Assembly (NCBI GenBank): GCA_030583845.1
Contig: CP129478.1
Location: 407,175-471,174, forward strand
Length of the DNA: 64,000 bases
Source of the DNA: Candidatus Dojkabacteria bacterium
Lineage (GTDB): Bacteria; Patescibacteriota; Dojkabacteria; SC72; JAHDCA01
Reading direction: 5' to 3'
Every line of letters starts with the position of its first letter. The first letter of the stretch is position 1. Positions 12,851-43,961 of the stretch are shown piece after piece. A program made the position numbers and the translations under genes. The notes under the pieces were generated by a model. The model ran no database searches. It was not told the origin of the DNA and worked only from the letters and a program-made list of their open reading frames with translations.

Positions 12851-12874
12851 ACTCCACTCGCGCTACCTTTTGTT

Positions 12875-12919: not shown

Positions 12920-12927
12920 AAGTTTTC

Positions 12928-16854: not shown

Positions 16855-19800
16855 TGGTCTCCTCGCTCTTCGCGTTAGAAATTAGATCAAGGTTTATGCA
16901 GAGTGCATTCAACTCTTTTACGAGTACCTTGAATGACTCCGGTAAGTTGATATTTTCAATCTTCTCACCATGGATAATTGCTTTGTAAGCCTGGGCACGT
17001 CCCTGGACATCGTCTGATTTGATAGTGAGCATCTCCTGAAGTGCATACGGTGTCCCGTGTGCCTCGAGAGCCCATACTTCCATTTCTCCGAATCTCTGAC
17101 CACCCATCTGTGCCTTACCACCAAGAGGCTGCTGTGTTACCAATGTGTATGGTCCTGTAGATCTAGCATGTACCTTCTCGTCAGCGATATGCTTCAGCTT
17201 CAACACATACTTCATACCTACGGCTACTTTCCTTGGGAACTTCTCACCTGTCCTACCGTCATACAGATCAACCTTCTCTGCCATCTCAAATCCGTTCTTC
17301 TTCAATTCTTCTGCAATCCACTCGCTGTTTACATCCTCAAATGTTGGGATTGAGAGCTTGATTCCAAGCATCTCGGCATAGTGCCCGAAGTGCACCTCAA
17401 GCGCCTGACCCATGTTCATACGCTTTACAAATGTAGGTGTCAGGACAATATCAACTGGCTGTCCATCTGCCGTGAAAGGCATATCCTCAACTGGCCTGAT
17501 AGCTGCGATTGTGTTCTTGTCTCCGTGCCTACCCGACAGCTTATCACCGTAGTCTACTTTCTTGGTCTCTGCGACCCATACCTTCACCTGCTTTAGCACG
17601 CCTGGCTTCAACTTATCGTCATTCTCGACTGATAGCATCTGCGTCTTAACAACAATACCTTTCGATCCGTGGGGAACTCTGAGTGATACATCTCTTACTT
17701 CGCTTGCAGCTTTTCCGAAGATTGCTCTCAAGAGCCTTTCCTCAGCTGTAAGCTCCTGCTCACCTCTTGGTGCTACGATACCGGCGAGGATATCTCCACC
17801 ATTTACACGTGCACCTACTCGTACAACACCCTCGATATCAAGATTGTGCAAGATTCTGATCGCTCACATGTGGGATATCTGCAGTAAGTACCTCAGGTCC
17901 GAGATCTGTATCTCGGAGATCTTGCATATATTCTCGGATATGGATTGATGTCAAAGTGTCATCACGCACAATGCTCTCTGAGATAACTGTTGAGTCCTCA
18001 TAGTTATAACCCTCGTAGAACATCAATGCTGCTCGAATATTTGTACCAAGTGCTAGCTCACCATTGTCCATAGTTGGACCGTCAACGAGCACATCATCTT
18101 TCTTAAATTTCTGTCCTACATCGACACGTGGCCTCTCTGAGAAAGCTGTGTCATAGTTCGACCTGAAGAATTTGGTGATCTTGTACTCCTTCTTTCCAAG
18201 CTTCTTATAATCAACCAAGATATGGTCTGCATCAAGTGTCAGTACTACACCATCATCTTCTGCGAATACACCCCAACCTGACTGTCGAGCAACGATCTCT
18301 TCATATCCTGTACCAACCATAGGTGCCTGCTGCTTAAGCAGAGGGACAGCCTGTCTTTGCTGGTTTGAACCGGTAAGCGCTCGCTTCGAGTCGTCGTGGT
18401 GAACAAATGGGATAAGAGCCATACCTACACCTGCCTGCTGTGCAGCAACCAGGTCGATATAGTTCACCATCTGTACATCCTGCATCAAGAAGTCTCCCCT
18501 ATACCTTACAGGTACGATCTTCTCAAGGATGTTGCCATCTCCGTCCACCTTGATGCCTTGCAAAGTAACATGCGCATCTTTCTCACTTGCTGCATCTAGA
18601 TACTCGATCGACTCTGTGATGAACGATCGAACCTCTAGCTCCTTCATATCCTTATTCTTAGCCAACTTTGTCGCAATTGCGGCTGTGATTACCTCACCCT
18701 CTTTTACGATAAGTTTGCCAGCCTCTTTGATATCTTCTGCGGCTAATCTTCCAACTGCATCCTTGCCATTGTTCTTTACATGATTGCGGACTACGTAGTA
18801 TGGAGCCTCGATAAAACCAAAGTCGTTGATCTTTGCGAACATTGCCAGCTGGTTTACAACACCGATCGATGCGCTTTCTGGGCTGGTGATAGGGTCGATA
18901 CGTGAGTAGTGTGTGTGGTGAACCTCACGGATTGAGAATGTAGCTCTCTCCTTGGTGATACCACCTGGGCCTGATGCGGTTACTTTTCGCTTATTCTCAA
19001 GCTCTGAAAGGATATTTGCCTGATCCATGAACATTGAAAGCTGGTTTGAGCCGAAGAAGTTGAGGATCGCAGCCGAGATAGGCTTGGTGCTGACAAGCAT
19101 TGATGGTGTAAGTTTTGAATCCTCACCGTACATGCTCATCTTATCCTTAATATTCTTCTCTACTCTTCGTACACCTACTCTGAGCTGGTCGATCAATACC
19201 TCACCGACGCTTCGAATTCTTCGATTTGACAATGAGTCGATATCGTCCGCTGTTTCAACGCCGTTGTTGATCTGGATAAGCTTCTTGATTATCAAGATCA
19301 GATCATCTGTGTAAAGCCTGCACTCTGGACCCTCAAGAGGATACTCTGTGCCAAGCTTTCGGTTGAGCTGGTAACGACCAACCTTTCCGAGGTCAAACCT
19401 TCTGTCATTGAAGAAATGTCCCTTAACATACTTCTCTGCACTCTCCAGGGTTACATTCTCATCAGGTCGGAGCTTGTTGTAGACATTGATTACCGCCTCT
19501 TCTCGTGATCTTGTGAAATCTCTTGCCAATGTAGCTTCTATATATTTGTGGTCTTCACTTGTATCTACATCTTTGAAAAGATCCCTTATCTCATCGTCTG
19601 ACTCATAACCCAAAATACGGAGAAGCTCGGTAAGGAGTACCTTTGGTCTCTTCTGTACCAATCTAATTGAGATTACATCGTGCTTGTTTACTTCAAATTC
19701 ATACCACTGTCCTCGTGCTGGCATCAGCTTTGCCGAGTAAAGGTTTCTTGCTGGAGATTTATCACTGATGTCGAAAAGCACTCCCTCTGCTCGCACTACC

Positions 19801-20213
19801 TGATGGGTAACTACTCTGCGTACACCATTAATAACAAAGTAGCCATCTTCAGTCATTAGAGGCATATCTGCCACGAATATCTCCTGCTCCTTGAGCTCAC
19901 CAGTCCTGTTGTTCAGCAGCTGCGAAGTCACGTATACAGGCGCATCATAAGAAAGCCCCTTGTCAGAGGCTTCTTCTACTGTGCGATTTGGCTTCCCATA
20001 TCGAAAATCCTTAAAGTCGAGGGTCCACATCCTCTCCATAGTGTCTTTCACCGGGGTGATTTCGGAGAAGAGGTACTCAAGGCCATCCTTCTTAAATTCT
20101 TCAAACGATTTGATCTGTGCTTCGATAAGATTCGGAAATTGAATCTTTGACAGATCTGTAGCACCGAGGTTGACTCTGCCCGCCCGGTTACTCAAGATTT
20201 GCTTTGCTGCCAT
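16832..20213 (-). CDS. rpoB: DNA-directed RNA polymerase subunit beta (RpoB), split into two overlapping ORFs by an apparent +1 frameshift near 17840-17851
   Basis: The N-part ORF (to about 17838) ends ...ADIPHVSDQNLAQS*. The C-part ORF begins (TTG)HNLDIEGVVRVGARVNGGDIL. Together they align collinearly with E. coli RpoB ...[32 protein letters not shown]. One extra nucleotide within AATCTTG restores the frame. Confidence 0.9.
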
Positions 20214-20607: not shown

Positions 20608-22891
20608 ATGGGAAGACGAAAAAAAGCGACATCGGAAATAACTATTCATAGTAAAGAAACCAGGATTATACTTGGTTTATTCCTCATACTTATAGCGCTT
20701 ACGCTTATCGCTGCACCGTTCAGCACAGAGGCTGTCTTCGAGCCGATTGTATTCTATCTTGGGGTACCATCAGTGGCCTGGGGAATCCTCATACTCCTCA
20801 TGGCAATCCGCGTCATCAAAGGCCCGAGCAAGTTTACAAACTGGAAAACCATTACAGGTACGCTTCTTATCGCTCTAATTCTCAACATCCTCTTCACATT
20901 TTGGATCCCCGAGGAGATATTAAGCAGCCAGACAGACTTCTCCAATGAAGGTGGCCAACTCGGATATATATTGCACACACAGCTAAATGCCATGGTAGGA
21001 GACTTCATCGAATTTGTACTTATTATTGTATTAATAATTGTAGCCTTCTCCCTCATCTCAGGTGTAAGCCTCGAACGGATCTCAAATAGTGTGGGCAACC
21101 TATTCGACAAGCTATTTGAAAGCCGCAATAAACTGAAGCTTCCAAAAGGTGAGGATGACGACGGAATCAGCATTGTAGATAGTATGTTCAAAGGCGGCGA
21201 CGACGATGAGGCTATAGATGAAGCAATTGAGCCAGAGATTGAAAATGGAGCCGAGCCGATCGCGAATATGAGGGCAAAAACCGAGCCAAATATGAGTGCC
21301 AACGTCGAGGCAGAGATCCGTGAAGCAACAGGCAAAGAGTTCGTAGAATCACCAAAGTCAAACAGCAAAGAAAGCAGTGAAGAGGAAAGCAGTACACTTA
21401 GCGAGCCACTATATCCAAACTGGAAATTCCCACCAGTAAACCTGCTCCAGAAGCCACAGGTCAGCCCGCAAGACCCAAACCTACACAAGCGCAACGCCAG
21501 CGTCATCGAGAAAACCTCTGCGCAGCTTCAATATTGAGTCACGTATCAGCAAAGTCACAATCGGCCCAACAGTCGTCCAGTACGCTCTAAGCATTACCGT
21601 AGGCACCAAGGTCGCAAAAGTGCGCAACCTCTCAAATGACATCGCATTGGCTCTAGCGACACCTGAGTCACAAATCCGCATCGAGGCTCCGATCCCTGGC
21701 ACCTCATTAATTGGTATCGAGATCCCCAACCCTACCCCGAATTTTGTATTCATCCGTGAGCTGGTCGAGAAGCTGAATGAAGAGCACGACAAATATAGAC
21801 TACCTATCATTCTTGGTAAGAATGTCGCTGGCCAACCAATCATCAAAGACCTCACAAGTCTCCCCCACCTCTTGGTCGCAGGCGCGACTGGTACCGGTAA
21901 ATCTGTAGGTATCAACTCGCTACTAACTGGTCTACTTATGACCAAGTCTCCTGATGAGCTAAAGCTTATTCTCGTCGACCCAAAGATGGTTGAGATGGCG
22001 CCTTATAATGGCATCCCTCACCTACTCACTCCGGTCATCACAGATATGGAGCTGGTAGTAAATGCGCTACAATGGACTGTCGAGGAGATGTTGAAGCGGT
22101 ATAGGGTATTGAAGCAGATCGGAGCCAGGAATATCACCGAGTACAACGACAAGGTTGGCGATCTAACAATGCCATACATAATAGTAGTAATCGATGAGAT
22201 GGCTGACCTTATGCTTACGACTGGAGTAGATGTAGAGTCAAAGATTGTACGACTAGCTCAGATGGCACGAGCAGTGGGTATTCACCTAATATTGGCAACC
22301 CAGAGACCTTCTGTAGATGTAATCACTGGCTTGATCAAGGCAAACGTGCCGGGTCGAATCGCATACAGCGTATCGACAGCTATCGACTCACGAGTAATCA
22401 TCGACCAGACTGGCGCAGAGACACTGATCGGCAAGGGAGATATGATGTTTAAATCACCTTCTACAGGCAGACCTATCCGTATGCAGGGTGCTTGGACTGA
22501 CACAGTCGACACCGAGGCGATCATCAGCTTTATCAAAGACCAGACGAAAGAGCTTAAGTATAGCGACGCAATCACCCAGCCGAAAGAAGAGAAGTCAGAA
22601 GGCGGAGGAGCTGCTTCGGGTCATTCAGATGACGCAATGTTCGCAGATGCACTCGAGGTAGTTGTAAATGCTCAAAAGGCATCGGCCTCCCTACTCCAGA
22701 GGAGATTGAGGATCGGTTATAACCGGGCTGCCAGATTGATTGATGAATTGCATGAGGCAGGAGCAATAGGCCCACAGGAGGGTAGTTCACCACGAAAAGT
22801 GCTAGTCTCCAGCAGTGATCAGATCTTAGGCGCAGGCAGCAGTGACGTTGATGATTTTGCAGACAACCAGGACGACAAGTCCGACTTCTAG
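20608..22891 (+). CDS. ftsK: DNA translocase FtsK/SpoIIIE (N-terminal membrane domain, linker, motor, gamma domain), with an apparent +1 frameshift near 21521-21529
   Basis: ORF1 (20608..21537) gives 4-TM and linker. The frame-2 reading from about 21440 gives ...FNIESRISKVTIGPTVVQYAL... (the FtsK alpha/beta start), then the Walker motor VAGATGTGKS and gamma domain LLQRRLRIGYNRAARLIDELHEAG. The junction KTSAQ(L)/FNIES matches the FtsK ETLAEFGIEA region after skipping 1 nt. Confidence 0.85.
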
Positions 22892-26835: not shown

Positions 26836-27594
26836 ATGCAAAGCATTACACCCAATAAATCGCTCGGACAGAACTTTTTCACAAACGCATCGCTTGCCAG
26901 AAAGATTGTAGATATTGTAGTCGAGAGTGACCCAAGCCATATCATTGAGATCGGGCCCGGGCCAGGCACATTTACCAATCTGCTCGCCGAACGAGCCCAG
27001 GTGATTGCGATAGAGAAGGATCATCAATTTGAGATGGTGCTGAGTCAGATTGATAACTTAGAGGTGCTGTATCAAGATATCCTAGAGACTGATTTTCATG
27101 AAATTTTAATGAAATGGGAACTCGAGGCTGAGAAAGTTGTGATTTTTGGATCCCTACCCTACAACATCTCTAAACGGATTATCGCCAACAATTTAAGGTC
27201 TAGTCTAATACAAAACCAGTACTACATTATTCAGAAAGAGGTCGCTGAGAAATATATTGCGAATGCCCCACAAAATAATATCCTCTCTTTAACCTCAGAG
27301 GTGTACTCACAATGCAACAAACTCTTTGATATTAGCCCAGGCTCCTTCAACCCACCGCCAAAAGTCACCAGCAGCTTCATTAAATTTACATTAAACGCAA
27401 CAGGTGAAATTCATGAAAATGCCGAGGAGCTTTGCAAATTCATTAGCAGCTCATTCTCCCACCCGCGCAAAACATTAAACAACAACCTTAAAAACTATTC
27501 AGAAGAGATTCATGACAAAGAGCTACTACAGATGCGACCCTCTCAACTTACCCTCGACCAGTATGTAGAATTATTCAATCAGTTGAAAAGATAA
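26836..27594 (+). CDS. rsmA: 16S rRNA (adenine1518/1519-N6)-dimethyltransferase RsmA/KsgA
   Basis: 252 aa. SLGQNFFTNASLARKIVDIV...IIEIGPGPGTFT is the KsgA signature. Confidence 0.85.
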   Translation: MQSITPNKSLGQNFFTNASLARKIVDIVVESDPSHIIEIGPGPGTFTNLLAERAQVIAIEKDHQFEMVLSQIDNLEVLYQDILETDFHEILMKWELEAEKVVIFGSLPYNISKRIIANNLRSSLIQNQYYIIQKEVAEKYIANAPQNNILSLTSEVYSQCNKLFDISPGSFNPPPKVTSSFIKFTLNATGEIHENAEELCKFISSSFSHPRKTLNNNLKNYSEEIHDKELLQMRPSQLTLDQYVELFNQLKR

Positions 27595-27656
27595 TCCAGA
27601 CCGACTAAACTACCAGACAAGCAAACCTTTAAGAGATATTTGATATAATCGCCCAA

Positions 27657-28115
27657 ATGTTTAGGAAAGAAGAAGAACAACCGCAATACGACCTCGGACT
27701 TAAACAGCCCAAGACAAACGCACTCAGACAGTACCGCCAGAAGATTATGTTAAAGCTCAGATTCCTCGAGACCAAAGGATATCTGCGCAGTCCTTATCCA
27801 TGGTTCTTTATATTTCTCTCGATTGCTTTAATAGCTGTGCAGGTCTACTGGATATACTATGCCCTTCCGGAAATGCCTTCGCAGGTGCCAATCTACCTAA
27901 ATCAGCGAGATCTCGCAGAAAGACTTGCCCCAAAGATGCATATCTACATATTCCCAATCTTTTCTGGAATTATCTTTGTAGCTTCATTTATAGTAACCTC
28001 CAAGTTCTATTATCTTATCAAGATTTTATCTAACTACACTTTTGTCATAGCAATCCTCTCAATCACAATGCTAACGCTCGGCCTATTCCAGATAATCGCA
28101 TACTACAATGTATAA
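27657..28115 (+). CDS. hypothetical small membrane protein (3-4 TM)
   Basis: 152 aa, hydrophobic. 8-nt overlap with the downstream GT4 gene suggests co-transcription. Confidence 0.45.
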   Translation: MFRKEEEQPQYDLGLKQPKTNALRQYRQKIMLKLRFLETKGYLRSPYPWFFIFLSIALIAVQVYWIYYALPEMPSQVPIYLNQRDLAERLAPKMHIYIFPIFSGIIFVASFIVTSKFYYLIKILSNYTFVIAILSITMLTLGLFQIIAYYNV

Positions 28116-29391
28116 CGATCAGATAACCGAAATAGCCCAATCACTCATTCTTCAGTTCCAGCACCCACAGATTCCAGTCGAATATGCCCGTTATCTCCAG
28201 TACGCACTTTTCTTCATAATCCCTTGCCTACTTGCTCTCGTCCTCACCCCTATCATCGGCAAGATTGCCAACGACCTAGATATTCGCAACGATACAAAAA
28301 CATTCACGAAAAATAAGCTCAATCGATATGAAAATAACTCCAGAAGGGTTAAGAAGACTCGGATCCCACTGCTAGGAGGGCTTGCGGTTATTCTCCCGCT
28401 CCTGGTTCTAATTCCTCTATTCTTCGGATTTAATGAAATTACTATACCTATACTTATAGCAATATCTATTCTTACAATTGCTGGGATTATCGACGATATC
28501 TACAATCTTCCAGGCAGCATTCAGCTGCTCGCACAGCTAGCAGCCGCCTTCATATTTGCAGCCTCTGTAGTCAATCTTGAAGTAATCAAGATACCTTTTG
28601 ATGGGTTTATCGACCTCTCCATGTACACTTGGAACGGCAATATCATGGGCTTGCCATGGGAATTCGTGTTCCCGGGAGATCTGATCGCAATGTTTTGGGT
28701 AGTTGTAGCTATCAATGCTATTAAATGGGTATCGGGATTAGACGCGCTCATGGAGTCAAATCTGATAGTAGGCTTCTTTATGATATTTATCATTGCTGCG
28801 CGTGGTGAGGCTGCACTAGTGCTCCTGCTCAGCGCCATGCTCACAGGTGGGCTTGCCGGATTTACCTTCTACAACTTCCCACCCGCCAAGATTATGTCGG
28901 CCGCCACTGGCAAGACTGTATACGGCTTCTTGGTCGCTGCCCTAGCACTGCTTAACGACACTAAGCTCGCAATTACGATTTTGATAATGCTGCTGCCACT
29001 GGTCGACTTCCTATTTGTCGTAACCAAGAGGTTTATCGTCAACCGTCCTAAATCTTTCAAGGAGACCATTCTTACACCTTTCAGACTGCTTAGAATCTCT
29101 GATACAAACCATATCCACCACCAGCTTCTTAAGCTTGGCTTCTCGACAAAGCAGATCTTGCTGCTCGAAACCAGCATCACCTTGCTGGCTGGCTCTATCG
29201 CGGTGCTCACGACAGAGGCGTATAGGCTGTTCTTTATCCTCGTGGGTGGTACTTTAATGCTGCTTTTCCTTACCATTCTTCATGTGAAGACTTCGAAGAT
29301 CCAGAAGCCGGTCGAGGAGAAAGAGGACAAGCCGGAAAAGAGACCACCTGAGCCTCCAAAGGGATCCCCGGAGTCGCGGTATTCTTATTGA
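28108..29391 (+). CDS. glycosyltransferase family 4 polyprenyl-phosphate phospho-sugar transferase (MraY/WecA-like)
   Basis: 427 aa, about 10 TM. IAGIIDDIYNLPGSIQLLAQ resembles the MraY/WecA cytoplasmic loop motif. Confidence 0.6.
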   Translation: MYNDQITEIAQSLILQFQHPQIPVEYARYLQYALFFIIPCLLALVLTPIIGKIANDLDIRNDTKTFTKNKLNRYENNSRRVKKTRIPLLGGLAVILPLLVLIPLFFGFNEITIPILIAISILTIAGIIDDIYNLPGSIQLLAQLAAAFIFAASVVNLEVIKIPFDGFIDLSMYTWNGNIMGLPWEFVFPGDLIAMFWVVVAINAIKWVSGLDALMESNLIVGFFMIFIIAARGEAALVLLLSAMLTGGLAGFTFYNFPPAKIMSAATGKTVYGFLVAALALLNDTKLAITILIMLLPLVDFLFVVTKRFIVNRPKSFKETILTPFRLLRISDTNHIHHQLLKLGFSTKQILLLETSITLLAGSIAVLTTEAYRLFFILVGGTLMLLFLTILHVKTSKIQKPVEEKEDKPEKRPPEPPKGSPESRYSY

Positions 29392-29461
29392 TTTGTCATG
29401 TGTGCTCTCTCACTGTGAGCTTGGGTCGAGCTATACAAATGCCAAGCTCAACGTTCGTTCG
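29389..29461 (+). repeat. compound hairpin starting at the GT4 stop codon: 17-bp outer stem (TGATTTGTCATGTGTGC/GCACACATGACAAATCA) enclosing a 9-bp inner stem TGAGCTTGG...CCAAGCTCA
   Basis: Perfect inverted repeats read directly. The inner 35-mer GTGAGCTTGGGTCGA..TA.AAATGCCAAGCTCAA is shared with 35229-35264. Confidence 0.6.
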
Positions 29462-29548
29462 CACACATGACAAATCAGCCGCAAGCCTGAGGAAGAAGTT
29501 TGCCATTTATTAATCAGCTATGCAGTATTATCCGCACGGATTGATACA

Positions 29549-29869
29549 TATTCTCAGGTAGGCTTCTTTATAAGACTACGAGACTTGGACTCATTTATAA
29601 GTAATTTCTTTGAGCTGGCTGGCTCTCGAAAAGAGCATTGGGTTCATCAATAATGTCAGAGGCTCGACATGAACCCACCGCGAGTTGAGAGTGAACAATA
29701 CTTAAGATAAATATATACTCAGGTAGGCTTCTTTATAAGACTACGAGATTTGGACTCATTTATAAGTAATTTCTTTGAGCTGGCTGGCTCTCGAAAAGAG
29801 CATTGGGTTCATCAATAATGTCAGAGGCTCGACATGAACCCACCGCGAGTTGAGAGAGCCAGCCAGCTC
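29549..29869. repeat. tandem direct duplication (2 x 143 bp, period 165 bp, 1 mismatch) ending in a 17-bp perfect inverted repeat that encloses the ATG at 29834
   Basis: Copy 1 is 29549-29691 and copy 2 is 29714-29856. The inverted repeat TGAGCTGGCTGGCTCTC (29776-29792) / GAGAGCCAGCCAGCTCA (29854-29870) holds a nested stem TGGGTTCAT/ATGAACCCA. Confidence 0.8.
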
Positions 29870-29884
29870 ATATATAATGAACCG

Positions 29885-30595
29885 ATGAAAAAATATCTGC
29901 CACTACTAATAATTGTAATAGTCGTGACGCTGTTCCTATCCGTGGTCCTCTTCACAAGGTCGCAGGAGTCACTATTAAAGAACCTCCCTTATTTCAAAGA
30001 GTCTTATAAAAACACATCTTTATCGATCACATCGCGAAATGGCGTTGCCGATATTATGATAAACGACAAAGAGTATGGTGAGACCCCGCTGGCGATTGAA
30101 GAGCTAACAGAGGGCAGGTATGAGGTAATCCTAGAAAAGAAAAGCTCAGAAGATGACAGCTCATTTTATGAGCCGATTGCACTATTCTTGGATTTATACA
30201 GGAATACTGAGGCTATCATCGATCTAGAGATTGCACCGGGTGGTTACAAGGCAGGATATGTACTTTACTACACTCCCGCACCACAAGCTGAGGCACAGAC
30301 AGGATTTATTACTGTGGAATCAAACAGCTCTAAGAGCAGAATGCTGCTAGATGGAGATTATTATAGCGACCTCCCGATCTCAGTTGATGAGCTCGAGGAG
30401 GGTGAGTATAAAATGAAAATTGAATCAACAGGGTATGAATCTGTTGAAGTTCCTATTATTATCAGACAGGGATACAATCTGAATGTAAGTACATTTCTAC
30501 TACCTATCCCAACTAATTTAGAGAAGCCTGCCCAGCCAGAAAGCGAGAATAGCGACTCGGATGCTGAAGCGCAGGATGAAGGAGGTGCCGAGTAA
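29885..30595 (+). CDS. PEGA-domain protein with N-terminal TM anchor (track ORF from 29834; likely start MKKYLPLLIIV at 29885)
   Basis: Two PEGA-like repeats (SITSRNGVADIMINDKEYGETPLAIEELTEGRYEVILEKK; ITVESNSSKSRMLLDGDYYSDLPISVDELEEGEYKMKIESTGY). Its stop overlaps the next gene's start (TAAATG). Confidence 0.5.
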   Translation: MKKYLPLLIIVIVVTLFLSVVLFTRSQESLLKNLPYFKESYKNTSLSITSRNGVADIMINDKEYGETPLAIEELTEGRYEVILEKKSSEDDSSFYEPIALFLDLYRNTEAIIDLEIAPGGYKAGYVLYYTPAPQAEAQTGFITVESNSSKSRMLLDGDYYSDLPISVDELEEGEYKMKIESTGYESVEVPIIIRQGYNLNVSTFLLPIPTNLEKPAQPESENSDSDAEAQDEGGAE

Positions 30596-33500
30596 ATGGC
30601 AAAAGATGAATTTAAACATGTAAAAACTTCTACGCTAATCTCTGTGGTTATTCACGGGGCAAATGACTTCGGATACAAGCTTTCTCGAACATTGGCCGAG
30701 CAAGGCAGCAGGGTTATTGTCGTTGATAATTTCAATAAAGATAGCAAAAACTGGGTCACCAAGCTGAAGCGACTCGAGAGGTGCGATTTCGTAGACTTCC
30801 AGGGTATTGAAGAGCTTTTCACAACACTTGGGCGATTCGATTATCTCTTCTACCTGCAGAATCAGTATCTAAATAACACAACCGAATTCAATAGCACACA
30901 GTTCCTTGCCGAATCAAACAACCTAAACATAGTACTCAAGAATGCCCAAAAATATAAGGCAAAGGTGAGTCTTGTCACAACTGTGCACTTTAACAAGATT
31001 GCAATTGAAAATAGCTTCCGTAACAAAGATTACCATCCATCCCCCTACTCCGCCGAGGAGATTCAGAAATATTCCGAGACGGTCACCGCTGAATTTCACG
31101 ATAAATCAAAGTTGAATGTAAGAATCTTGCGGCTCGGTGCTCTCTTGGGTGACAAATATCATACAACCGAGGATAAAGAGCTAAGCACATTAATCCATGA
31201 AGGTGTAACTAAATCTGAGATCGTAATCCAGGGCGAAGGACTGACAAACCATTACCTTGTACACCCAGAGGATGCCGTTTACGGCATTTTGAAGCTTACC
31301 TTCACCGGAGAGACCAATGGTGAGGTTATCACATTGGCACAGGAGAGACCACTTACCACTCTTTCGATTGCATATAAGCTGCTTGAATTAAATGTCTCTG
31401 CGACGAAGATCAAATTTGCCAAGTCAAAAGATAACGATTTTCTATTCCAGGAGATATACACACCTGCACCATTCGCTACTGAGTATGGATGGTCTGCTCA
31501 AAGAACAATTGATGAATCATTTACAGAGGCAATTAAAGCCCTCTACAAAGCCGAGAATAAGAAATGGGATATTGAGAAAGATAGAGAGATCGAGATCGAA
31601 AGCGCCGCCGAGGCCGACAAGATAAAAACTAAGCATACTGCTAAGGTTGAGAAGACATCATTGGGTCGATTTTTCGACAAGATACTCTCTCCATTTCGAG
31701 CCCTATTTGCCAAGATTGGTGGCAATGAGCTGGATGTTTTCAACTTCCGCAATATAGCTTTCTTCACAGTCGGAGTGATTCTACTAGGCTTGGTGTCATA
31801 CTTCTTTATAACTCCAGTCGCTGTGTTAGGCATCGACGGCTACCGTATCGCCAGAAATACTAAGCAGACCTATGCACAGATTCAGGAATTAGACTTCGAA
31901 GGCGCAGAGGAGACTGTTAACTCTATGAGCAACGACTTTGAGCGCGTGGAAACAAGCACTAAGAGGCTTGAATGGGTATTTATAGTAACGCGACAGGAAG
32001 AGCTGTATAAAAATGTAAATCAACTACTATTTGCGACAGGCTATGCACTGCAGGGAGCTGAAGATATGGTCTCGGCATTGGAGCCGTTTGCCATGTATAT
32101 GAAAGAGTTTGAGCCAGCGGTTTCGTTTGGCGGAGAGAATAGAACCAACCCGGTCGAATATACCCAGTATCTAGAGCAGATGAAAGAGAACAGGTCTAAG
32201 CTCGAGACAGCCTCATACAACCTCACTCTGGCATCTAGTATCGTAGATTCTCTTGAGATACAGGAATTTCCAAAGGCAATCCAGCCAAGAGTCGCCGAAT
32301 TGAAATCAATGAACCGCGAGGCAAGCGAACTAATTACCCCATTCCAGAAGACATTGATCTTCTTGCCAGAGCTGCTTGGCAGTGAAGGAAGACAGCGATA
32401 CCTAATACTGCTACAAAATCCTTCAGAGCTCCGCTCAACTGGTGGATGGCTTTCAAGCTATGCAATCCTCGGGATCGAGAACGGTCAGGTAAGGCAGCTA
32501 GATGTCGATGACATCTACAATCTGGATGGTCAGCTATCGCTCGCAGATAAGAGCTACAGCGCCCCAGAAGATATGCAAGAGGCTCTCGACATCGATGAAT
32601 GGAGCATGTCCACCTCAAACTGGAGTCCTCACTTCCCCACTACAGCTGAAAATGCCAAGTTTTTCATCCAGGAATCTGGCAAAGCATATGAAGTTGATGG
32701 TGTAATCGCACTAGACGTTACATTTATACAGATGCTTCTGGAGAAATGGGGAGGAATTGAGGTACAGGGAGAAGATGAAGAGGTCACAGCTGACAACCTC
32801 TATTCGAAGATTTTTGCAATCCACGATGAGTTCACGCCGGGATCAAGGCAGAAGGCAACATTTATCGCTAACTTGGCAGATGCAGTGCTGAAGAAAGTGA
32901 TCTCATCGGGCTCAGATGGATACCGAGATATGTCAGAAGTATTCCTGCAGGCATTAGATCAGAAAAATATCTTGATCACCTTGAATAACCGCGAGGCCAA
33001 CCAATATTTCTCTGACCAGGGCTGGAGCGGCACAATTACCGAGGGGTATGTGGGCACACCGATCCCTGTCGAGTGGAACTGGGGAGCCAACAAGGCCAAC
33101 CTCTATCTGGAGAAAACCCACTCGCTAAATATGGATATTAAAAATGAAGACACTGTTAACTATACATATGTACTGGCGGTGAAGAACGAGTCAGAAGAGG
33201 ATAAGTATCCAGAGGGTGAGTATCGAAATTGGTTTAGGGTGTATCTACCTGAGAATGCCGACGTTAAGAGCGTGATTGGCTTTGACGACGACGATTACAC
33301 CGTATACCTAGAGGATAGATTTACGGTGGTCGCGGGCTGGTTTACTACCGAAATTCAATCAACAAACCAGGTGGAAGTTAACTACACACTAACCCGCGAT
33401 GAAAGCTCAACCGACCCATTCCCGATAAATATAGCAAACAACAGTATCAGTACCGAGATCAAGCTGTATAAACAGCCTGGGATATTCGATGATGTATACC

Positions 33501-33634
33501 AGCTAGACGTAAGCTACCCTGACACTTGGGCAATTATTGAAAATGGTGATATGCAGGAGGGAGTCTCTAAGCTGAGCAATAGATATGAACTGGAGAGCGA
33601 CATTGAGGTAGATCTACTGTGGGAGTACCGTTAA
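30596..33634 (+). CDS. large envelope protein: N-terminal NAD-dependent epimerase/dehydratase-like Rossmann domain, one TM, C-terminal DUF4012-like domain
   Basis: 1012 aa. VVIHGANDFGYKL...GSRVIVVDNF (degenerate GxxGxxG). TM IAFFTVGVILLGLVSYFFITPV. C-terminal LILLQNPSELRSTGGWLSSYAILG recalls the DUF4012 signature (from memory, unverified). Confidence 0.5.
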   Translation: MAKDEFKHVKTSTLISVVIHGANDFGYKLSRTLAEQGSRVIVVDNFNKDSKNWVTKLKRLERCDFVDFQGIEELFTTLGRFDYLFYLQNQYLNNTTEFNSTQFLAESNNLNIVLKNAQKYKAKVSLVTTVHFNKIAIENSFRNKDYHPSPYSAEEIQKYSETVTAEFHDKSKLNVRILRLGALLGDKYHTTEDKELSTLIHEGVTKSEIVIQGEGLTNHYLVHPEDAVYGILKLTFTGETNGEVITLAQERPLTTLSIAYKLLELNVSATKIKFAKSKDNDFLFQEIYTPAPFATEYGWSAQRTIDESFTEAIKALYKAENKKWDIEKDREIEIESAAEADKIKTKHTAKVEKTSLGRFFDKILSPFRALFAKIGGNELDVFNFRNIAFFTVGVILLGLVSYFFITPVAVLGIDGYRIARNTKQTYAQIQELDFEGAEETVNSMSNDFERVETSTKRLEWVFIVTRQEELYKNVNQLLFATGYALQGAEDMVSALEPFAMYMKEFEPAVSFGGENRTNPVEYTQYLEQMKENRSKLETASYNLTLASSIVDSLEIQEFPKAIQPRVAELKSMNREASELITPFQKTLIFLPELLGSEGRQRYLILLQNPSELRSTGGWLSSYAILGIENGQVRQLDVDDIYNLDGQLSLADKSYSAPEDMQEALDIDEWSMSTSNWSPHFPTTAENAKFFIQESGKAYEVDGVIALDVTFIQMLLEKWGGIEVQGEDEEVTADNLYSKIFAIHDEFTPGSRQKATFIANLADAVLKKVISSGSDGYRDMSEVFLQALDQKNILITLNNREANQYFSDQGWSGTITEGYVGTPIPVEWNWGANKANLYLEKTHSLNMDIKNEDTVNYTYVLAVKNESEEDKYPEGEYRNWFRVYLPENADVKSVIGFDDDDYTVYLEDRFTVVAGWFTTEIQSTNQVEVNYTLTRDESSTDPFPINIANNSISTEIKLYKQPGIFDDVYQLDVSYPDTWAIIENGDMQEGVSKLSNRYELESDIEVDLLWEYR

Positions 33635-33703
33635 GCTCTTGAATTTGGGAATTCTGAGAACTTTGACAAGTCTGGGATCGCGTGGAAATGGCGCTAAAGG
33701 ATA

Positions 33704-34078
33704 TTAGAAGCTAACTGCCCTATCGATCTCTTCGAGCTGTGCAAAAAGATCTAGCACCTCGTCACTTGAGATTTTGGGGAGCTTGGCAAATCGGCCAATC
33801 TCGTCAATTAGTAGATCGCAATTAACAGGAACTCGGCTGCTCATGCCCATCGGCCTAATAAACGTGGCAATATGATTAGATTTACAATTGCTGCACGAGA
33901 AGTGTATAATACTCGAGAAATTTGACTCCTGAACAATATGAACATCGTCAGTACCATATTCAGTACCGCACCTGTCACAGAATTTCGCAACCGTATCTAT
34001 AAAGTATTTCTTTTTACTATTGGAGGCAGAACCATTTAAGTTGTTACTATTTTTGTGGGTCTTATCGTTATTTTCCAT
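33704..34078 (-). CDS. hypothetical zinc-ribbon protein (CxxC...CxxC), divergent from rpoD
   Basis: 124 aa. CDRCGTEY...CSNCKSN. Lys/Asn-rich N-terminus. Only 32 nt separate its start from the rpoD start. Confidence 0.45.
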
Positions 34079-34110
34079 ACTATTTAAAATTATATCATAG
34101 AGAGGTTAAT

Positions 34111-35205
34111 ATGCAGCAAAGAAAAAAAGAGGAAGTAATCAAGCAGCTACTGGTCAAAGGAAGAGACCAGGGTTTCTTAACTCAGGATGATATCCTGATG
34201 GAGGTTCCTCATGCTGAAGATGATCTTGAGCTCCTCGACGAGATTTTCACATTGCTACAAGATGAGTCGATAGCCGTCCTCGAAGGCGAAGAGGTCCAGG
34301 AGACCAGCCGCGACGAGGAGACATTAACACTCGAGAAGAAGATCCGTATCCTCAAGACAATCCAATCAACCATCTCAACCGACGCAATCCGCTCATACCT
34401 GCATGAGATCGGCAAGATCCCTCTATTGACCGCTGAAGAAGAGGTTATCCTAGCCAAGAGAATCGAAGCCGGCGACAGGGAGGCAACCCAATTGCTGATC
34501 ACAGCCAACCTCCGATTGGTAGTGAGCATCGCCAAGAAATATGCAAAGCGTGGCCTCGAGCTACTCGACCTGATCCAGGAAGGCAACATGGGCCTGATGC
34601 GAGCCGTCGAGAAATTCAACTATAAGAAGGGCTTCAAATTCTCCACCTATGCAACTTGGTGGATCCGACAAGCTATCACCCGTGCAATCGCCGACCAGGC
34701 CCGCACGATCCGTATCCCTGTACATATGATCGAGACAATCAACAAATTCAACAAGGTTCAAGCGACTTTAACCAGCAAGCTTGGCCGCAAGCCTACAGAT
34801 GACGAGATCGCCAAAGAGATGGGCATCGACCTCGCAAAGGTCGCCGAGATTAAGAAGATTTCTCAAAACCCAACCTCCCTCTCTACCCCTATCGGCGAGG
34901 ATAAGGAAAACGAGCTTGCAGACATTTTGTCAGATGACTGGTCAAAATCACCTGAGCAGATAGCAACTACCGAGTACCTCCGAAACCAGATGAAGCTTAT
35001 CTTGGACACTCTCCAAGATCGTGAGCGCCGAGTGTTGTCTTTGCGATTTGGTCTGGATGATGGTGTGACTCGAACCTTGGAAGAGGTTGGCCGCGAGTTC
35101 GGTGTAACTCGTGAGCGTATTCGTCAGATCGAAGCAAAAGCCCTGAAGAAGCTTAAAGAGAGGTCTATGCAGAAGCAGTTGGAGGATTATATATCTATCG
35201 ATTAG
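34111..35205 (+). CDS. rpoD: RNA polymerase sigma factor RpoD/SigA (regions 1.2, 2, 3, 4)
   Basis: 364 aa. [20 protein letters not shown], ...[16 protein letters not shown]...[24 protein letters not shown], and a region 4 [30 protein letters not shown]. Confidence 0.92.
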
Positions 35206-35288
35206 GTTTCCTGATTTTCTCGCTCGAGGTGAGCTTGGGTCGAAATATAAATGCCAAGCTCAATTCTCGCTCTAAATTCAGGAAACCT
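35205..35288 (+). repeat. compound hairpin starting at the rpoD stop codon: 11-bp outer stem AGGTTTCCTGA/TCAGGAAACCT enclosing an inner GAGCTTGG...CCAAGCTC stem (same 35-nt core as 29412-29447)
   Basis: Read directly. A degenerate third copy lacking the central 24 nt is at 35466-35490 (CGAGGTGAGCT|CAATTCTCACTC). Confidence 0.6.
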
Positions 35289-35588
35289 AACATGGGTTGC
35301 AGAACGAAAAGTCTCGCTCACAAGTCACCAAAATTAGCATGCCGTTGCATAAATGGTGGCTCACTTACACAAGTAACGTGAGGGCAATGACCTCCATAGC
35401 GAAGAGGAGTAATATACACGAGACTTGGGAACCACGTCGAAGAATTCTGCTTCCACGAAGCTTCATTCGAGGTGAGCTCAATTCTCACTCACAAGACTTG
35501 TAGGTTAACAGAGGGATATACGAACAAGGTATTCATCAGTGACGTGGGGGAAGATTTTCGAGACTTTGCTCGCAACGTCGAGAAAATT

Positions 35589-35879
35589 TTACTCCACTTC
35601 ACTTTTAAGTTCTTCGATTCTCTGCAGCGTTTCCTCTTCAATCTTCAGAAGATCCTCTGGGGGGACCTCTAAATTATCCGTTCTGGTTTCAATCTCGTCC
35701 AAGATTTCCGAGTCGAAGCTGCTGCTAATCGGGCGAAGCTGAGATTCAACACCCGGAGTCACCTCAACAGAAGAAACAGTATCGTACAAAGTGATTCCTG
35801 ACCAGGCGATAGCCACGACTGTCAGGAGCACAATTATGAGTGTCAAAAAGACTCTATTCATAGAAGAGCGGGTCATCAA
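35589..35879 (-). CDS. small membrane protein (possible pilus-assembly accessory, PilP-like position)
   Basis: 96 aa with an N-terminal TM. Overlaps the upstream pilO-like gene by 26 nt. No diagnostic motif. Confidence 0.35.
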   Translation of the reverse strand: MMTRSSMNRVFLTLIIVLLTVVAIAWSGITLYDTVSSVEVTPGVESQLRPISSSFDSEILDEIETRTDNLEVPPEDLLKIEEETLQRIEELKSEVE

Positions 35880-37082: not shown

Positions 37083-37163
37083 GTCTGGGCAGTACGAAAT
37101 CTAACTATAAAAAGTATAAAGAAAAGTCGAGATTTAAACAACTATACGGGTCAGCCCTCCGCA

Positions 37164-37197
37164 GGGCGTCCGACCACTTCAAAGTGGTCGGACGCCC
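37164..37197. terminator. near-perfect 15/16-bp hairpin GGGCGTCCGACCACTT-CA-AAGTGGTCGGACGCCC in the intergenic region upstream of pilN
   Basis: Read directly. An overlapping alternative small stem GCCCTCCGCAGGGC (37152-37168) allows mutually exclusive folds. Confidence 0.6.
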
Positions 37198-37413
37198 TGG
37201 TTCGTATTACGCTACTCTGGGCTGGAAAGTCGGGGTTTGTTACAATGGAATTAATAAGCTGATTAAGAATCTTAAATGGATTTAATAATAGATCACCTAC
37301 TTTATTTTGCGGTAACACTTGGGATCGGCTTCGCGCTAGGCTGGAAGCTGAAACCATCAGAAAGTCACCAAAAGGAAGAGGAAAAAGTTCGGGAGTAAGC
37401 CTGATCTAGAATT

Positions 37414-37437
37414 GCTCGGACCCGATCGGGTCCGAGC
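37414..37437 (-). terminator. perfect 24-nt palindrome GCTCGGACCCGATCGGGTCCGAGC, 18 nt after the stop of the 37455..38390 gene
   Basis: Read directly. On the minus strand it is followed by AAUUCUAGAUC, a weak U-tract. Confidence 0.5.
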
Positions 37438-37454
37438 ATTAAGGTCTGAGCTAG

Positions 37455-43395: not shown

Positions 43396-43430
43396 TGTTC
43401 AGTCTGTTTAATTTAATCTCTTGCAAACGG

Positions 43431-43492
43431 TCAAATAAAAACCGTCCTCGAAAAATAAAAAAGCATAACTCTTTTATTCTCTAAGGACGGTC
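43431..43492 (-). terminator. rho-independent terminator on the minus strand (GACCGUCCU...AGGACGGU stem followed by UUUUUAUUU) immediately upstream of valS
   Basis: The plus strand shows ACCGTCCT...AGGACGGT with a preceding A-run TCAAATAAAA (43431-43440). Confidence 0.7.
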
Positions 43493-43690
43493 TTCACCGT
43501 GGTACCACCTTATTTCCCTGCACGGTTGCCCACACAGGCTTAATGTGTACTTTGAATTCAACATACACCCTCTATTTACGGTTGAGTTTCCGCCGGACTC
43601 TACTCTCTTCTGAAGCTACAGTGTGCCTATCAGATTTCCTTCCGGACCTCGAGGGTGACAAGCCCTCTCAAGCGGTTCTCTATTTAAATT
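43432..43690 (-). ncRNA. candidate structured ncRNA (about 260 nt) with SRP-RNA helix-8-like motif AGGUCCGGAAGGAA; possibly a divergent or large-type SRP RNA
   Basis: Bounded by an extended -10 promoter (TGGTATAAT, minus strand, 43705..43697) and the terminator at 43431-43492. Contains GAGGUCCGGAAGGAAAUC (a 14-nt identity to E. coli 4.5S RNA domain IV around the GGAA tetraloop) and UGUAGCU. No ORF. Confidence 0.4.
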
Positions 43691-43696
43691 TCATGA

Positions 43697-43735
43697 ATTA
43701 TACCATATATTAGCGCAGGGATCGATCTATTAGCG
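43697..43735 (-). promoter_or_regulatory. extended -10 promoter TGGTATAAT (minus strand) for the candidate ncRNA
   Basis: Reverse complement of 43697-43705 is TGGTATAAT. Weak -35. Confidence 0.4.
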
Positions 43736-43961
43736 GCCTCAAGTGTGCGGCGGCGTGGCGTGTTGCCATTTATATAACCCTATAGTATAATCTCGCTCAA
43801 TTGATTGTAGATGTGACGAAAGTTCATCGAAAATCTGCTCTTTAATATGAGGGATCATTTTCACCTCCATCAGGCTTTATGCCTGCATAAGAAGATTTAG
43901 CGGGAATAGATAACCGTGGTTGTCTGTTTTGCTAAATCTTTTAACAACAAGGAGGTTAAAC

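Follow-up and report, generated by a model that had tools for sequence, protein, structure and literature searches.

A nested palindromic repeat family in a Candidatus Dojkabacteria genome

The REP elements are imperfect palindromes that share their sequence across a genome, in tens to hundreds of extragenic copies and in both orientations. They carry the tetranucleotide GTAG/CTAC at the foot of the hairpin, and the gene of the RAYT (TnpA-REP, a Y1/HUH transposase) is typically REP-flanked. In an intrinsic terminator, a U-tract follows a GC-rich stem that has a short loop. The target of a diversity-generating retroelement (DGR) departs from its template repeat by substitutions specific to adenines, and an RT gene is located close by. 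TIGR arrays are tandem units next to a Nop-domain tas gene, and their spacers match DNA targets on both strands. Stem-loop TIGR units consist of a variable palindromic stem, two equal spacers of 8–12 nt and a loop UG...CCA/CAA; arrays have been described from CPR bacteria, and in the CPR TasR clade the TIGR loop contains an extended hairpin (PMC12045711, Faure et al. 2025; bioRxiv 10.64898/2026.09.09.750476, the preprint of Xu et al. 2026).

The 64-kb window considered here, that is, the whole stretch of DNA that was analysed, comes from a Candidatus Dojkabacteria (CPR) genome of about 1.04 Mb. A sequence-only reading of it had pointed out compound stem-loops at two stop codons. The hairpins at both stop codons are genuine, and the pattern reaches well past these two sites. 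Both of them, denoted here S1 and S2, belong to a family of nested palindromic DNA repeats that is clade-specific and had not been described before. The claim that their similarity is no coincidence holds: at least five full and three truncated members are present in the window, and more are found in sister strains and a sister species.

The nearest known category is the one named earlier, REP/BIME-like or other small mobile palindromic elements. Like REP, BIME and REPIN, the elements are short extragenic palindromes in both orientations, often situated just past stop codons; they fold as single strands, have conserved nucleotides at the hairpin foot, are clade-specific and dynamic, and are proposed to act secondarily as mRNA 3' stabilisers. 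Unlike REP, the copies share no stem sequence (six of the nine inner pairs differ and the outer stems are unrelated), only junction nucleotides and architecture being conserved. The layout is nested, with an outer stem, a symmetric loop and an inner palindrome, and the invariant foot is G|TG..CA|A rather than GTAG, an analogous but different motif. Finally, neither the scanned ORFs of the window nor the flanks retrieved included a RAYT gene.

The hairpin MITEs (Correia/NEMIS, RUP, ERIC, RPE) are similarly small, non-coding, repeated, intergenic and insertion-polymorphic between strains, and promoter or terminator activity is possible in both cases, as with M1 below, which supplies a -35 box. 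Unlike MITEs, however, this family has no shared terminal inverted repeats, target-site duplications or sequence-conserved body, and its arms are perfect and copy-specific rather than decaying.

Building plan of the elements

The elements are about 35–95 nt long and, read on the top strand, consist of three parts: (i) a perfect Watson-Crick outer stem with a sequence private to each copy; (ii) a pyrimidine-rich internal loop with two equally long strands, of which the 5' one usually starts UC... and the 3' one usually ends ...UC; and (iii) an inner palindrome of 8–39 nt, invariably G|TG...CA|A, that is, beginning with TG after G and ending with CA before A. Members are recognised solely by this architecture and the short junction motifs. 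The full plan is seen in S1, S2 and the elements at 29776–29870 (minus strand), 35554–35587 (minus strand) and 61589–61657, whereas the members at 29611–29691, 35420–35441 and 35460–35493 are truncated (Table 1). All are confined to three intergenic regions of the window. S1, S2 and S3 are sense to the upstream gene, while M1/M2 and S4 are antisense to both neighbours; the family thus occurs extragenically and in both orientations within the window.

Table 1. Nested palindromes and associated features in the 64-kb window
Feature	Position	Strand	Remarks
S1, full compound hairpin	29389–29477	+	68.6 bits (covariance model); z -7.2
Hypervariable island	29393–29491		alleles A and B compared
Half M2 (outer arm, junction, one inner arm)	29560–29594	-	complete M2 in strains L001 and L008
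Arm-truncated M1 copy	29611–29691	-	65.5 bits
M1, full compound hairpin	29776–29870	-	z -8.5; matches the plan
S2, full compound hairpin	35202–35290	+	73.5 bits; z -7.35
Armless W-type core	35420–35441	-	TTCGACG-TGGTTCCCA-AGTCTC; 10 bits, not significant alone
S3, armless S-type core	35460–35493	+	TCGAGGTGAGCTCAATTCTCACTC; 32 bits, E=3e-7
Small W-type compound hairpin	35554–35587	-	outer stem 6 bp, loop 7/7, inner TGCGAGCA
S4, compound hairpin	61589–61657	+	14.2 bits, E 0.06; z -8.5

The outer stems are unbroken Watson-Crick runs of 13–18 bp without G-U pairs. They are indeed different and perfectly complementary, as had been stated, but the S1 and S2 stems are not co-varying, being unrelated sequences and not homologues. 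In the inner helix, six of nine pairs are changed on both sides, and Watson-Crick pairing is retained in 54 of 54 cells, with no G-U in any of them. Compensatory change is seen between alleles or orthologues (S1-A/S1-B, L010a/L011) and, across copies, in the inner helix. The unpaired motifs G|UG..CA|A, CUC and UC..UC are conserved, and in five copies the sequence is C-UC-Nn-UG[..]CAA-Nn-CG, closed by a C:G pair. The 3-bp helix beside the foot has a top-strand G-U pair in S1-B and M1.

Such textbook covariation of the inner helix, the conserved unpaired motifs, the very strong folding (z from -7 to -8.5) and the G-U pairs by the foot, which fit a folded top strand, favour a cis-acting structured RNA selected in 3' UTRs or intergenic regions, such as a terminator without a U-tract, an exonuclease block or a docking site for an RNase or another protein. 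The conserved junction nucleotides would then bind a protein, and the stems would be free to vary as long as they pair. Seven of about ten members begin 0–3 nt from a stop codon in the sense orientation, again as expected of such an RNA. However, G-U pairs are absent from the 54 inner-helix cells and the 13–18-bp outer stems, no copy is followed by a T-run, M1/M2 and S4 run antisense to the genes on either side, copies that are armless or reduced to a half have been retained, the elements are entirely missing from close relatives in which genes and synteny are the same, and the proximity to stop codons is forced by ancestral spacers of 7–14 nt. We consider this explanation unlikely.

In each of the 11 copies scored, the two sides of the internal loop are equally long (5/5, 6/6, 6/6, 7/7, 9/9, three times 10/10, 11/11, 12/12 and 15/15). 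This symmetry around the inner palindrome, together with the perfect Watson-Crick arms, is what one would expect of palindromes grown locally without mobility, a TG..CA seed triggering template switching or fold-back repair. Inverted repeats would be repeatedly created, extended and re-perfected in place, and the shared motifs would reflect common descent via local duplication and ectopic conversion between copies. Simple hairpins elsewhere (37162–37199 and 37413–37438) are also perfect and have compensatory changes, several members are clustered in each of two spacers (29.4–29.9 kb and 35.2–35.6 kb), and an exact inverted copy of 22 nt links the centre of hairpin W, described below, to a site about 280 nt downstream. 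On the other hand, template switching should have paired the loop strands as well, but they stay unpaired and keep their motifs in most copies; moreover, there are members at unlinked loci (29, 35 and 61 kb) and in a second species, and S1 and S2 have an identical core across 5.8 kb. Purely local growth seems rather improbable.

Loci, strains and relatives

The S1 stem begins at the T of the TGA of a Glycos_transf_4 ORF (28108–29391). The perfect outer stem of 17 bp reported at this stop codon is confirmed (TGATTTGTCATGTGTGC / GCACACATGACAAATCA); it encloses GTGAGCTTGGGTCGAGCTATACAAATGCCAAGCTCAA. The internal loop is 10/10, and the inner palindrome, TG..CA, spans 35 nt, with a stem of 9 bp and a loop of 17 nt. 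None of 200 shuffles folded equally well. The exact 13-mer GAGCTTGGGTCGA and the exact 14-mer AATGCCAAGCTCAA are each found in the 64 kb at S1 and S2 only, the chance expectation being about 0.002 exact matches for a 13-mer by an arithmetic estimate. Identical core segments of 15 and 14 nt, shared by two elements of one genome at a distance of 5.8 kb, point to recent copying or conversion between copies.

S1 exists in two alleles, each observed in two samples. Allele A (the window and SRR24881069) and allele B (DRR779146, DRR859400) differ in 41 columns out of about 100 nt, outer stem and core both being affected, while the upstream 2.4 kb, from about 27000 to 29392, are without differences. 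In allele B both stems are again perfectly paired. Among the changes from A to B are T>C, T>G, G>T and C>T, and the opposite arm mirrors the changes. An assembly artefact is ruled out by identical alleles from independent samples. DGR-type hypermutation was rejected, as the substitution spectrum is wrong, being mirrored on the other arm and not adenine-specific, and the window contains no RT gene. An inversion switch cannot yield the allele differences either, since perfect arms are their own reverse complement. S1 is missing from the sister species with 95% RpoD identity, where the spacer is 116 nt.

The S2 stem begins 1 nt ahead of the TAG of rpoD (34111–35205). The outer stem at this codon is perfect, as claimed, but its length is 13 bp and not 11 bp (TTAGGTTTCCTGA / TCAGGAAACCTAA). 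It encloses GTGAGCTTGGGTCGAAATATAAATGCCAAGCTCAA, with an internal loop of 15/15 and an inner palindrome of 33 nt; no shuffle out of 200 was as stable. A third, shortened copy had been placed at 35466–35490 with a loss of 24 nt; the copy, S3, is real, but it has the span given in Table 1, and its inner palindrome lacks 27 nt. Its score was obtained with a model that did not contain S3 in training. Sister strain L001 has a full-length S3 in the same place (L001 11439–11499), GTGAGCTCAG-GTTGATGACTGCGAATG-CTGAGCTCAA, and comparison of the two sequences identifies the window copy as a deletion derivative.

In L001 a different member, W, has taken the place of the left half of S2, with the unpaired right arm left over; the same pattern is seen between L010 and L011. 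The armless core at 35420–35441 is the exact 22-nt reverse complement of the W centre. The small minus-strand hairpin at 35554–35587 begins 1 nt past the stop of a minus-strand ORF (35589–35879). The spacer between rpoD and the next gene is 383 nt here, against 7 nt in L015 and 14 nt in L016, relatives with 78–82% RpoD identity.

These two relatives bear on the earlier suggestion that the core had been inserted into existing terminator hairpins. According to it, a mobile core of about 25–60 nt, comprising the junctions and the inner palindrome, would enter the loops of older gene-specific hairpins. Possible targets are numerous, as many gene ends have long simple perfect hairpins (380–403, 12873–12921, 37413–37438); armless cores do exist (S3 and 35420–35441), and the inner element of S2 is flanked on either side by the 9-nt direct repeat TTCTCGCTC. 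However, L015 and L016 have no hairpin in their spacers of 7–14 nt, hence the outer stem and the core arrived or arose together. Further, the alleles at one locus vary in the outer stem plus the core, the family motifs in the junction strands reach the first base of the outer stem (UC...UC), exact loop symmetry is not expected from entry into arbitrary loops, an "empty" outer stem was not found, and the flanking repeat is convincing in S2 only. We regard this scenario as very unlikely.

M1 has an outer stem of 17 bp (TGAGCTGGCTGGCTCTC), an internal loop of 11/11 and an inner palindrome of 39 nt. It adjoins the TATAAT of the promoter of a PEGA gene and supplies the -35 box. A second identical half of M2 is situated at 29725–29759, and the arm-truncated M1 copy sits in the first unit of a 165-nt tandem duplication.

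S4, 36 nt past the yidC stop, has an outer stem of 19 bp with one C.A mismatch, an internal loop of 9/9 and the inner element TGACCTAAGGTCA, and it probably belongs to the family. The sister species has no element at yidC-jag. As M1 (29776–29870) and S4 are antisense to both flanking genes, the strict link to stop codons does not hold; adjacency to a stop codon is expected for almost any tolerated insertion in so compact a genome.

The family is missing from relatives whose RpoD is 75–80% identical. Among relatives with 78–82% RpoD identity, the covariance model did not find the family in about 75 kb of distinct sequence, and both elements are missing at the two orthologous loci in 80% relatives (L012–14). 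The sister species has no members in another 20.6 kb. This distribution indicates that the elements are gains of one clade. A long hairpin with a degenerate core at the stop of a DUF4012-domain gene is present or absent among strains separated by about 10 SNPs in 7.6 kb, and other loci feature whole-hairpin replacement, halving and duplication. Turnover of the elements is thus very fast and proceeds by replacement, by halving, by deletion within an element and by duplication in tandem. They occupy the scarce non-coding nucleotides of a compact genome and for that reason touch stop codons and promoters. Synonymous changes are clustered in the last codons beside replaced hairpins, which points to short-tract homologous recombination between diverged lineages as a process from which the allelic hypervariability could stem.

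Database searches and possible mechanisms

The exact core had four matches in the genome contig collection (Planctomycetales, Synechococcales and Oscillatoriales cyanobacterial MAGs, and Polyangiaceae); these are chance, as they fit the hairpin part of the model only. No metagenome contig matched either GTGAGYYYGGGTCGAN{6,20}CCRRRCTCAA or the sister-species core GAGGTGGCTCGAAGCCAATTCTC, and the viral contigs contained no exact core. The sequence-only reading had let its case depend on further copies of the core; taken literally, this condition goes against it, as beyond S1 and S2 the genome contigs gave chance matches only and the metagenome and viral contigs none. With Rfam, only tRNA-Ser was found at the gathering threshold, and at E<=10 the S1 and S2 loci yielded sub-threshold chance matches only.

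Similarly to intrinsic terminators, the elements are stable hairpins immediately after or overlapping the stop codon. Unlike them, they have loops of 55–63 nt, conserved internal motifs and no U-tract, and some copies are antisense or lie upstream of promoters. The sequence 3' of the stems is GCCGCAAG in S1 and CATGGGTT in S2, and a scan for terminators at 29300–35700 made no call at either. Overall, of the initial interpretation, the repeat family stands, while the canonical terminator, insertion of the core into hairpins and the strict stop-codon link are not supported.

Integron attC sites resemble the elements in the architecture of the folded strand (stem, unpaired central spacer, stem and variable terminal structure), in little sequence conservation and in the location at the ORF 3' end. 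However, here the outer stems have no RYYYAAC/GTTRRRY R-boxes, there is no cassette array or intI, and the neighbours are core housekeeping genes in conserved synteny.

Several other identities were rejected. By inspection, neither strand has a GA/AG tandem after the 3-nt bulge, as in a K-turn or box C/D; CUGA...UGAUGA is present in the M1 loop only. SECIS, PYLIS or another recoding signal does not agree with the use of all three stop codons, TGA, TAG and TAA. A small ORF from the loop ATG would have different frames and peptides in S1-A, S1-B, S2, M1 and M2. As for TCGA, CTCGAG and GAGCTC as restriction or methylation sites, TCGA occurs at the expected frequency (ratio 0.97). Anti-Shine-Dalgarno mimicry by the CU-rich loops was discarded, as most genes here have no SD and look leaderless.

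We tentatively favour an invasive REP/REPIN-like palindromic repeat with turnover at the DNA level, whose role as an mRNA 3' hairpin would be incidental only. Like REP/REPIN or MITEs of the hairpin type, the elements would spread and be reshaped while folded as single strands, and a putative reader would recognise the invariant junctions. The arms would stay strictly complementary because one serves as the template for the other, through quasi-palindrome template switching or arm-to-arm conversion, and not through selection at the RNA level. Once transcribed, the elements may form stable hairpins at the 3' end and so shield the transcript or cause transcription to pause, a side effect making them tolerable at gene ends.

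Some observations do not agree with this REP-like explanation. No transposase, RAYT/HUH, integrase or reverse transcriptase gene is present in the window or the fetched flanks, and neither a target-site duplication nor a shared terminal inverted repeat was found in the filled-versus-empty and allele comparisons. The stems differ from copy to copy; we know of no REP or MITE family with copy-specific stems, nor of a mechanism giving each copy its own outer arms. The restriction to three intergenic regions of the window and the lack of members in the further 20.6 kb of the sister species also argue against it. The invariant unpaired nucleotides and the fixed strand polarity would equally fit a structured RNA with a protein partner, and the short-tract recombination mentioned above could account for the allelic hypervariability.

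Lastly, the elements share with tigRNAs, IS110 bridge RNAs and box C/D sRNAs a variable stem and two equal unpaired segments with a UG...C(C/A)A element between them. As in tigRNAs of the CPR TasR clade, this element can be an extended hairpin, and the host here is also a CPR bacterium. The hairpins might then be dispersed dual-guide RNAs of the Nop-domain world, akin to IS110 bridge RNAs or to tigRNAs of the stem-loop type, with an unlinked Tas-like protein as their reader. The loop strands would be the guides, the "loop repeat" would correspond to the inner TG..C(C)A, and the outer palindrome would be a stem replacing the edge repeat. The topology fits the published stem-loop TIGR units (PMC12045711; bioRxiv 10.64898/2026.09.09.750476), the loop strands are of equal length in all copies, there is a resemblance between the short inner elements TGGTTCCCA and TGCGAGCA and the TIGR 9-mers TGAAACCCA and TGCGAGCCA, and the sequence of the five copies with the closing C:G pair also speaks for it.

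However, real TIGR units read CCA-N9-CG NNNN CCA-N9-CG (PMC12045711, Table S1), whereas here the inner D...C pair (TG...CAA/CCA) is present in all copies, but the outer box C is N-UC and the outer box D is C-N' (CG in 5 of 11), neither conserved nor symmetric with the inner ones. As the outer junction (N-UC...UC-N') differs from the inner motif pair (UG...CAA), the two-fold symmetry defining tigRNAs is broken. The copies are scattered singly beside housekeeping genes and do not form tandem arrays adjoining a tas gene; the "spacers" are CU-rich and semi-conserved rather than diverse, and vary from 5 to 15 nt instead of the fixed length of about 9 nt; the stems are much longer (13–23 bp) and wobble-free. 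Nop/Tas or IS110 genes are absent from the window ORFs (Pfam) and the flanks, and a search of the window and L001, covering about 6% of the genome, found no TIGR-type tandem two-strand targets. The 879-nt spacer at 43396–44274 was dismissed as a TIGR array, as what it contains is a small membrane ORF besides a T-box-like leader; for neither of the two unannotated 320-aa ORFs that follow it was there a Tas-like match in the PDB. Dispersed guides are the most doubtful of the explanations considered. It is just as speculative that the compound hairpins are stand-alone relatives of tigRNAs or IS110 bridge RNAs in housekeeping 3' UTRs and promoter spacers, their two guide-like strands lying in a symmetric loop bounded by a copy-specific stem and a UG...C(C/A)A hairpin, with an unlinked, asymmetric Nop-type reader, and that the rapid allelic replacement is retargeting.

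Implications for CPR genomes

Genomes of the CPR/Patescibacteria are regarded as small, streamlined and repeat-poor. Here, a putatively invasive palindromic repeat has stretched a spacer of 7–14 nt to 383 nt, and through it strains that are otherwise identical come to differ at the 3' ends of genes and in the -35 box of a promoter. As a source of regulatory differences among strains of these organisms, this would be new. The copy-specific, perfectly complementary arms, set against conservation of the junction nucleotides and the symmetric loop only, constitute a mechanistic puzzle. Behind it may stand a DNA enzyme of a new kind that reads hairpins, an unusually efficient form of replication or repair that corrects palindromes, or dispersed relatives of the newly discovered TIGR/IS110 guide RNAs. 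Finally, islands with about 40% divergence within identical flanks can mislead strain-resolved metagenomics and the inference of recombination.

Architecture of the repeat family

S1, at the TGA of the GT4 gene, and S2, at the rpoD TAG, are compound hairpins (z -7.2 and -7.35 in folding against shuffles). S1 is as the sequence-only reading had described it, while S2 has the perfect outer stem ascribed to it, with 13 bp instead of 11. Two segments, 15 nt and 14 nt long, are identical between the enclosed cores. In the 64 kb scanned, the 13-mer GAGCTTGGGTCGA and the 14-mer AATGCCAAGCTCAA have exact matches at S1 and S2 only, and searches of public collections of genomes, metagenomes and viruses yielded no further copy of the exact cores. 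The third, short copy (S3) is genuine and is recovered at 32 bits by a covariance model trained on six copies.

The family extends beyond this pair, and what defines it is its architecture. Scanning for the pattern G-TG[palindrome]CA-A yielded two additional minus-strand members in the spacer immediately downstream of S1, where the window keeps only halves of M2, a member that is complete at this spot, in a single, different arrangement, in the near-identical strain L001. The covariance model also matches S4. A general architecture descriptor picks up all these members (M1, its twin, M2, S3, S4), a further small one and, outside the window, W (the hairpin that L001 has at its rpoD stop) and two members from the sister species (95% RpoD identity). 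The view of S1 and S2 as a repeat family and not a coincidence is borne out.

Coordinates of family members and other features in the window
Feature	Position	Strand	Description
S1	29389-29477		17-bp perfect outer stem; first base is the T of TGA, Glycos_transf_4 ORF
S2	35202-35290		13-bp perfect outer stem; begins 1 nt ahead of the rpoD TAG
S3	35460-35493		short copy
S4	61589-61657		covariance-model match, 14 bits, E 0.06
M1	29776-29870	minus	17-bp outer stem
Twin of M1	29611-29691	minus	arm-truncated; within the tandem duplication
Tandem duplication	29548-29856		two 165-nt units, 99% identical, each half of M2 plus M1
Small member	35554-35587	minus	starts 1 nt past the stop of a convergent ORF
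Predicted promoter at M1	29850-29878	plus	near-consensus -35 (TTGAGA) supplied by M1, 17 nt from TATAAT
Simple perfect hairpins, non-members	37162-37199; 37413-37438		17 bp; 11 bp
GIY-YIG ORF	50719-50967	minus	stand-alone, 82 aa
TATAAT-like boxes, examples	upstream of 27657, 29885, 33704(-), 62800(-)		6-10 nt upstream of ATG
AT-rich motif	2050-2081; 2372-2403; 27093-27117; 41411-41435; 59948-60397; 61554-61574		TTTTAATGAATATTTAATAAA / TTCATTAAAA
leuS	41065-43395	minus
T-box-like sequence	~43440-43700	minus	GGTGGTACCACGGTG..., upstream of leuS
Small hydrophobic ORF	43963-44118		strong SD (AAGGAGG)
rpoB-like; ftsK-like	16832-20213; 20608-22891		each two adjacent or overlapping ORFs
Region around tRNA-Ser(GGA)	54581-57420		small SUKH and SHOCT ORFs
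tRNA-Ser(GGA)	55972-56058	minus
205-nt repeats	55987-56191/56756-56960
105-nt repeats	55180-55284/55849-55953

On the top strand every copy consists of a copy-specific perfect outer stem, a loop strand, TG[inner palindrome, 8-39 nt]CA, a second loop strand and the closing outer stem. The 5' loop strand usually starts with UC and ends with ..CUC-GAGG/GCGG/GACG; the 3' one reads A-NN-CUC.. and usually ends with UC. Their length varies from 5 to 15 and is equal within the copy in 11/11 scored cases. Across the six long copies, the inner helix counts 9 pairs, and at 6 of these both partners have changed; 54/54 cells are Watson-Crick, with no G-U. The elements are clade-restricted, fast-turnover nested palindromes whose strand polarity is fixed, whose junction nucleotides are invariant and whose arms pair strictly by Watson-Crick rules; they occupy scarce intergenic space in both orientations.

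No Rfam family matches the repeats, and neither TSDs nor shared TIRs were found. The attC site and the DGR target were rejected. The terminator suggested earlier is ruled out in its canonical intrinsic form because the T-run is absent. A selected cis-acting RNA 3'-end element is rather unlikely, and would leave the copy-specific perfect outer arms unaccounted for, as would all models considered.

Distribution among relatives and turnover between strains

RpoD homologues place the window in a Candidatus Dojkabacteria bacterium (WS6; Patescibacteria/CPR). All neighbour genes of the repeats are housekeeping ones in conserved synteny, and no transposase, integrase, reverse transcriptase or Nop-domain gene is present among the window ORFs scanned. 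The sole nuclease-like candidate is the GIY-YIG ORF, with no link to the repeats.

As judged from related genomes, the family members are shown to be clade-specific gains. The spacer between rpoD and the convergent gene is 7 nt and 14 nt in two relatives with 78-82% identical RpoD (L015 and L016, respectively), versus 383 nt in the window; the 80% relatives have hairpins at neither locus, and the covariance model has no match in any of the 78-82% and 80% relatives. Therefore at rpoD the outer stem and core are not additions to an older terminator. This contradicts the proposal, made in the sequence-only reading, of a small core inserted into pre-existing terminator hairpins, which is improbable. 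The sister species lacks S1, has at the rpoD stop an orthologous, strongly diverged element (core TCGAGG-TGGCTCGAAGCCA-ATTCTC), and contains no member in a further 20.6 kb around yidC-jag.

L001 matches the window exactly between ~27000 and 29392 and shows 5 differences across 29871-35204, versus 41 differing columns inside 29393-29491. Its S1 allele is again perfectly paired (outer stem TGATCGTTTATGTTTGT/ACAAACATAAACGATCA, inner stem GAGTTCGG/CCGAACTC). Both alleles are stable and no artefacts, since two independent samples yield each of them. Downstream of rpoD, L001 has W in place of the left half of S2, whose right arm remains partnerless. The centre of W (L001 11121-11142) forms an exact 22-nt inverted repeat with L001 11399-11420 (window 35420-35441), ~280 nt downstream, a pattern compatible with templated, inverted copying from one member to another. 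Growth of the palindromes in place, with no mobility, is unlikely.

Two near-identical strains, L010 and L011, repeat the pattern of a new hairpin at a stop codon and an orphan right arm downstream. At the stop of a DUF4012-domain gene, L011 carries at 9498-9590 a simple hairpin of considerable length (ATTGAGGTTGAACTC/GAGTTCAACCTCAA) and, after it, a degenerate core (GGAAGCTCGAAGCTAATTCTTAG), both missing in L010; the strains are ~10 SNPs apart over 7.6 kb. Together with the hairpins, the type of stop codon and a few synonymous positions in the final codons change, so short-tract homologous recombination between lineages with separately evolved spacers can explain part of the sharp islands. 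The non-member hairpins also differ between the window and L001, by compensatory or inner-stem replacement changes, and hence this genome seems to maintain perfect arms in general.

The predicted promoter at M1 closely precedes the position (29885) at which the PEGA-domain gene probably starts, and in L001 the alternative allele M2 places a different sequence at the -35 position. Thus, by the predicted boxes, the repeat rewires this promoter between strains.

Other features of the window

Many genes throughout the window have a TATAAT-like box close to the ATG and lack a Shine-Dalgarno sequence, pointing to leaderless mRNAs. The AT-rich motif often sits immediately before start codons (groES, groEL, jag) and is a possible promoter or operator element. 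The T-box-like sequence is not reported by Rfam at the gathering threshold. The small hydrophobic ORF contains two perfect 10-11-bp hairpins, with a third just upstream. For the paired rpoB-like and ftsK-like ORFs, a frameshift, a truly split gene and an assembly error are all conceivable. The repeat-bearing region around tRNA-Ser(GGA) is a candidate integrated element or polymorphic toxin-immunity island.

Likeness to TIGR units and interpretation

Stem-loop TIGR arrays are described mainly from CPR bacteria. Each unit has a palindromic stem that varies and two spacers of equal length (8-12 nt); the spacers are parted by a central element with a UG start and a CCA/CAA end, extended to a hairpin in one CPR TasR clade (PMC12045711; bioRxiv 10.64898/2026.09.09.750476). 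Units in Table S1 read [stem]-CCA-N9-CG NNNN CCA-N9-CG-[stem] (PMC12045711). Our repeats have this topology, and their short inner forms (TGGTTCCCA, TGCGAGCA) resemble TIGR 9-mers. However, they fail the tests that define the group: they are single dispersed units and not arrays; the sequence examined has no tas gene; the outer junction (N-UC...UC-N') differs from the inner motif pair, unlike in TIGR; and both loop strands are rich in C and U and partly conserved, again unlike TIGR. No tandem TIGR-type target was found in the window and L001. The likeness is therefore treated as a resemblance in a possible working mode, not as membership, and a dual-guide RNA of the TIGR/IS110 kind is very improbable.

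Our preferred reading, a tentative one, is a REP/REPIN-like invasive element. On this reading it is the folded single strand that is acted on, the arms would stay identical through arm-to-arm templated correction, and gene ends would tolerate the element since the 3' hairpin that it forms does no harm or is of use. The family is a real feature of the palindromic-repeat kind, as a previously unseen variant. Its interest, moderate to high, lies in how unusually it is conserved, in the extreme dynamics of its alleles within a streamlined CPR genome and in its TIGR-like topology.
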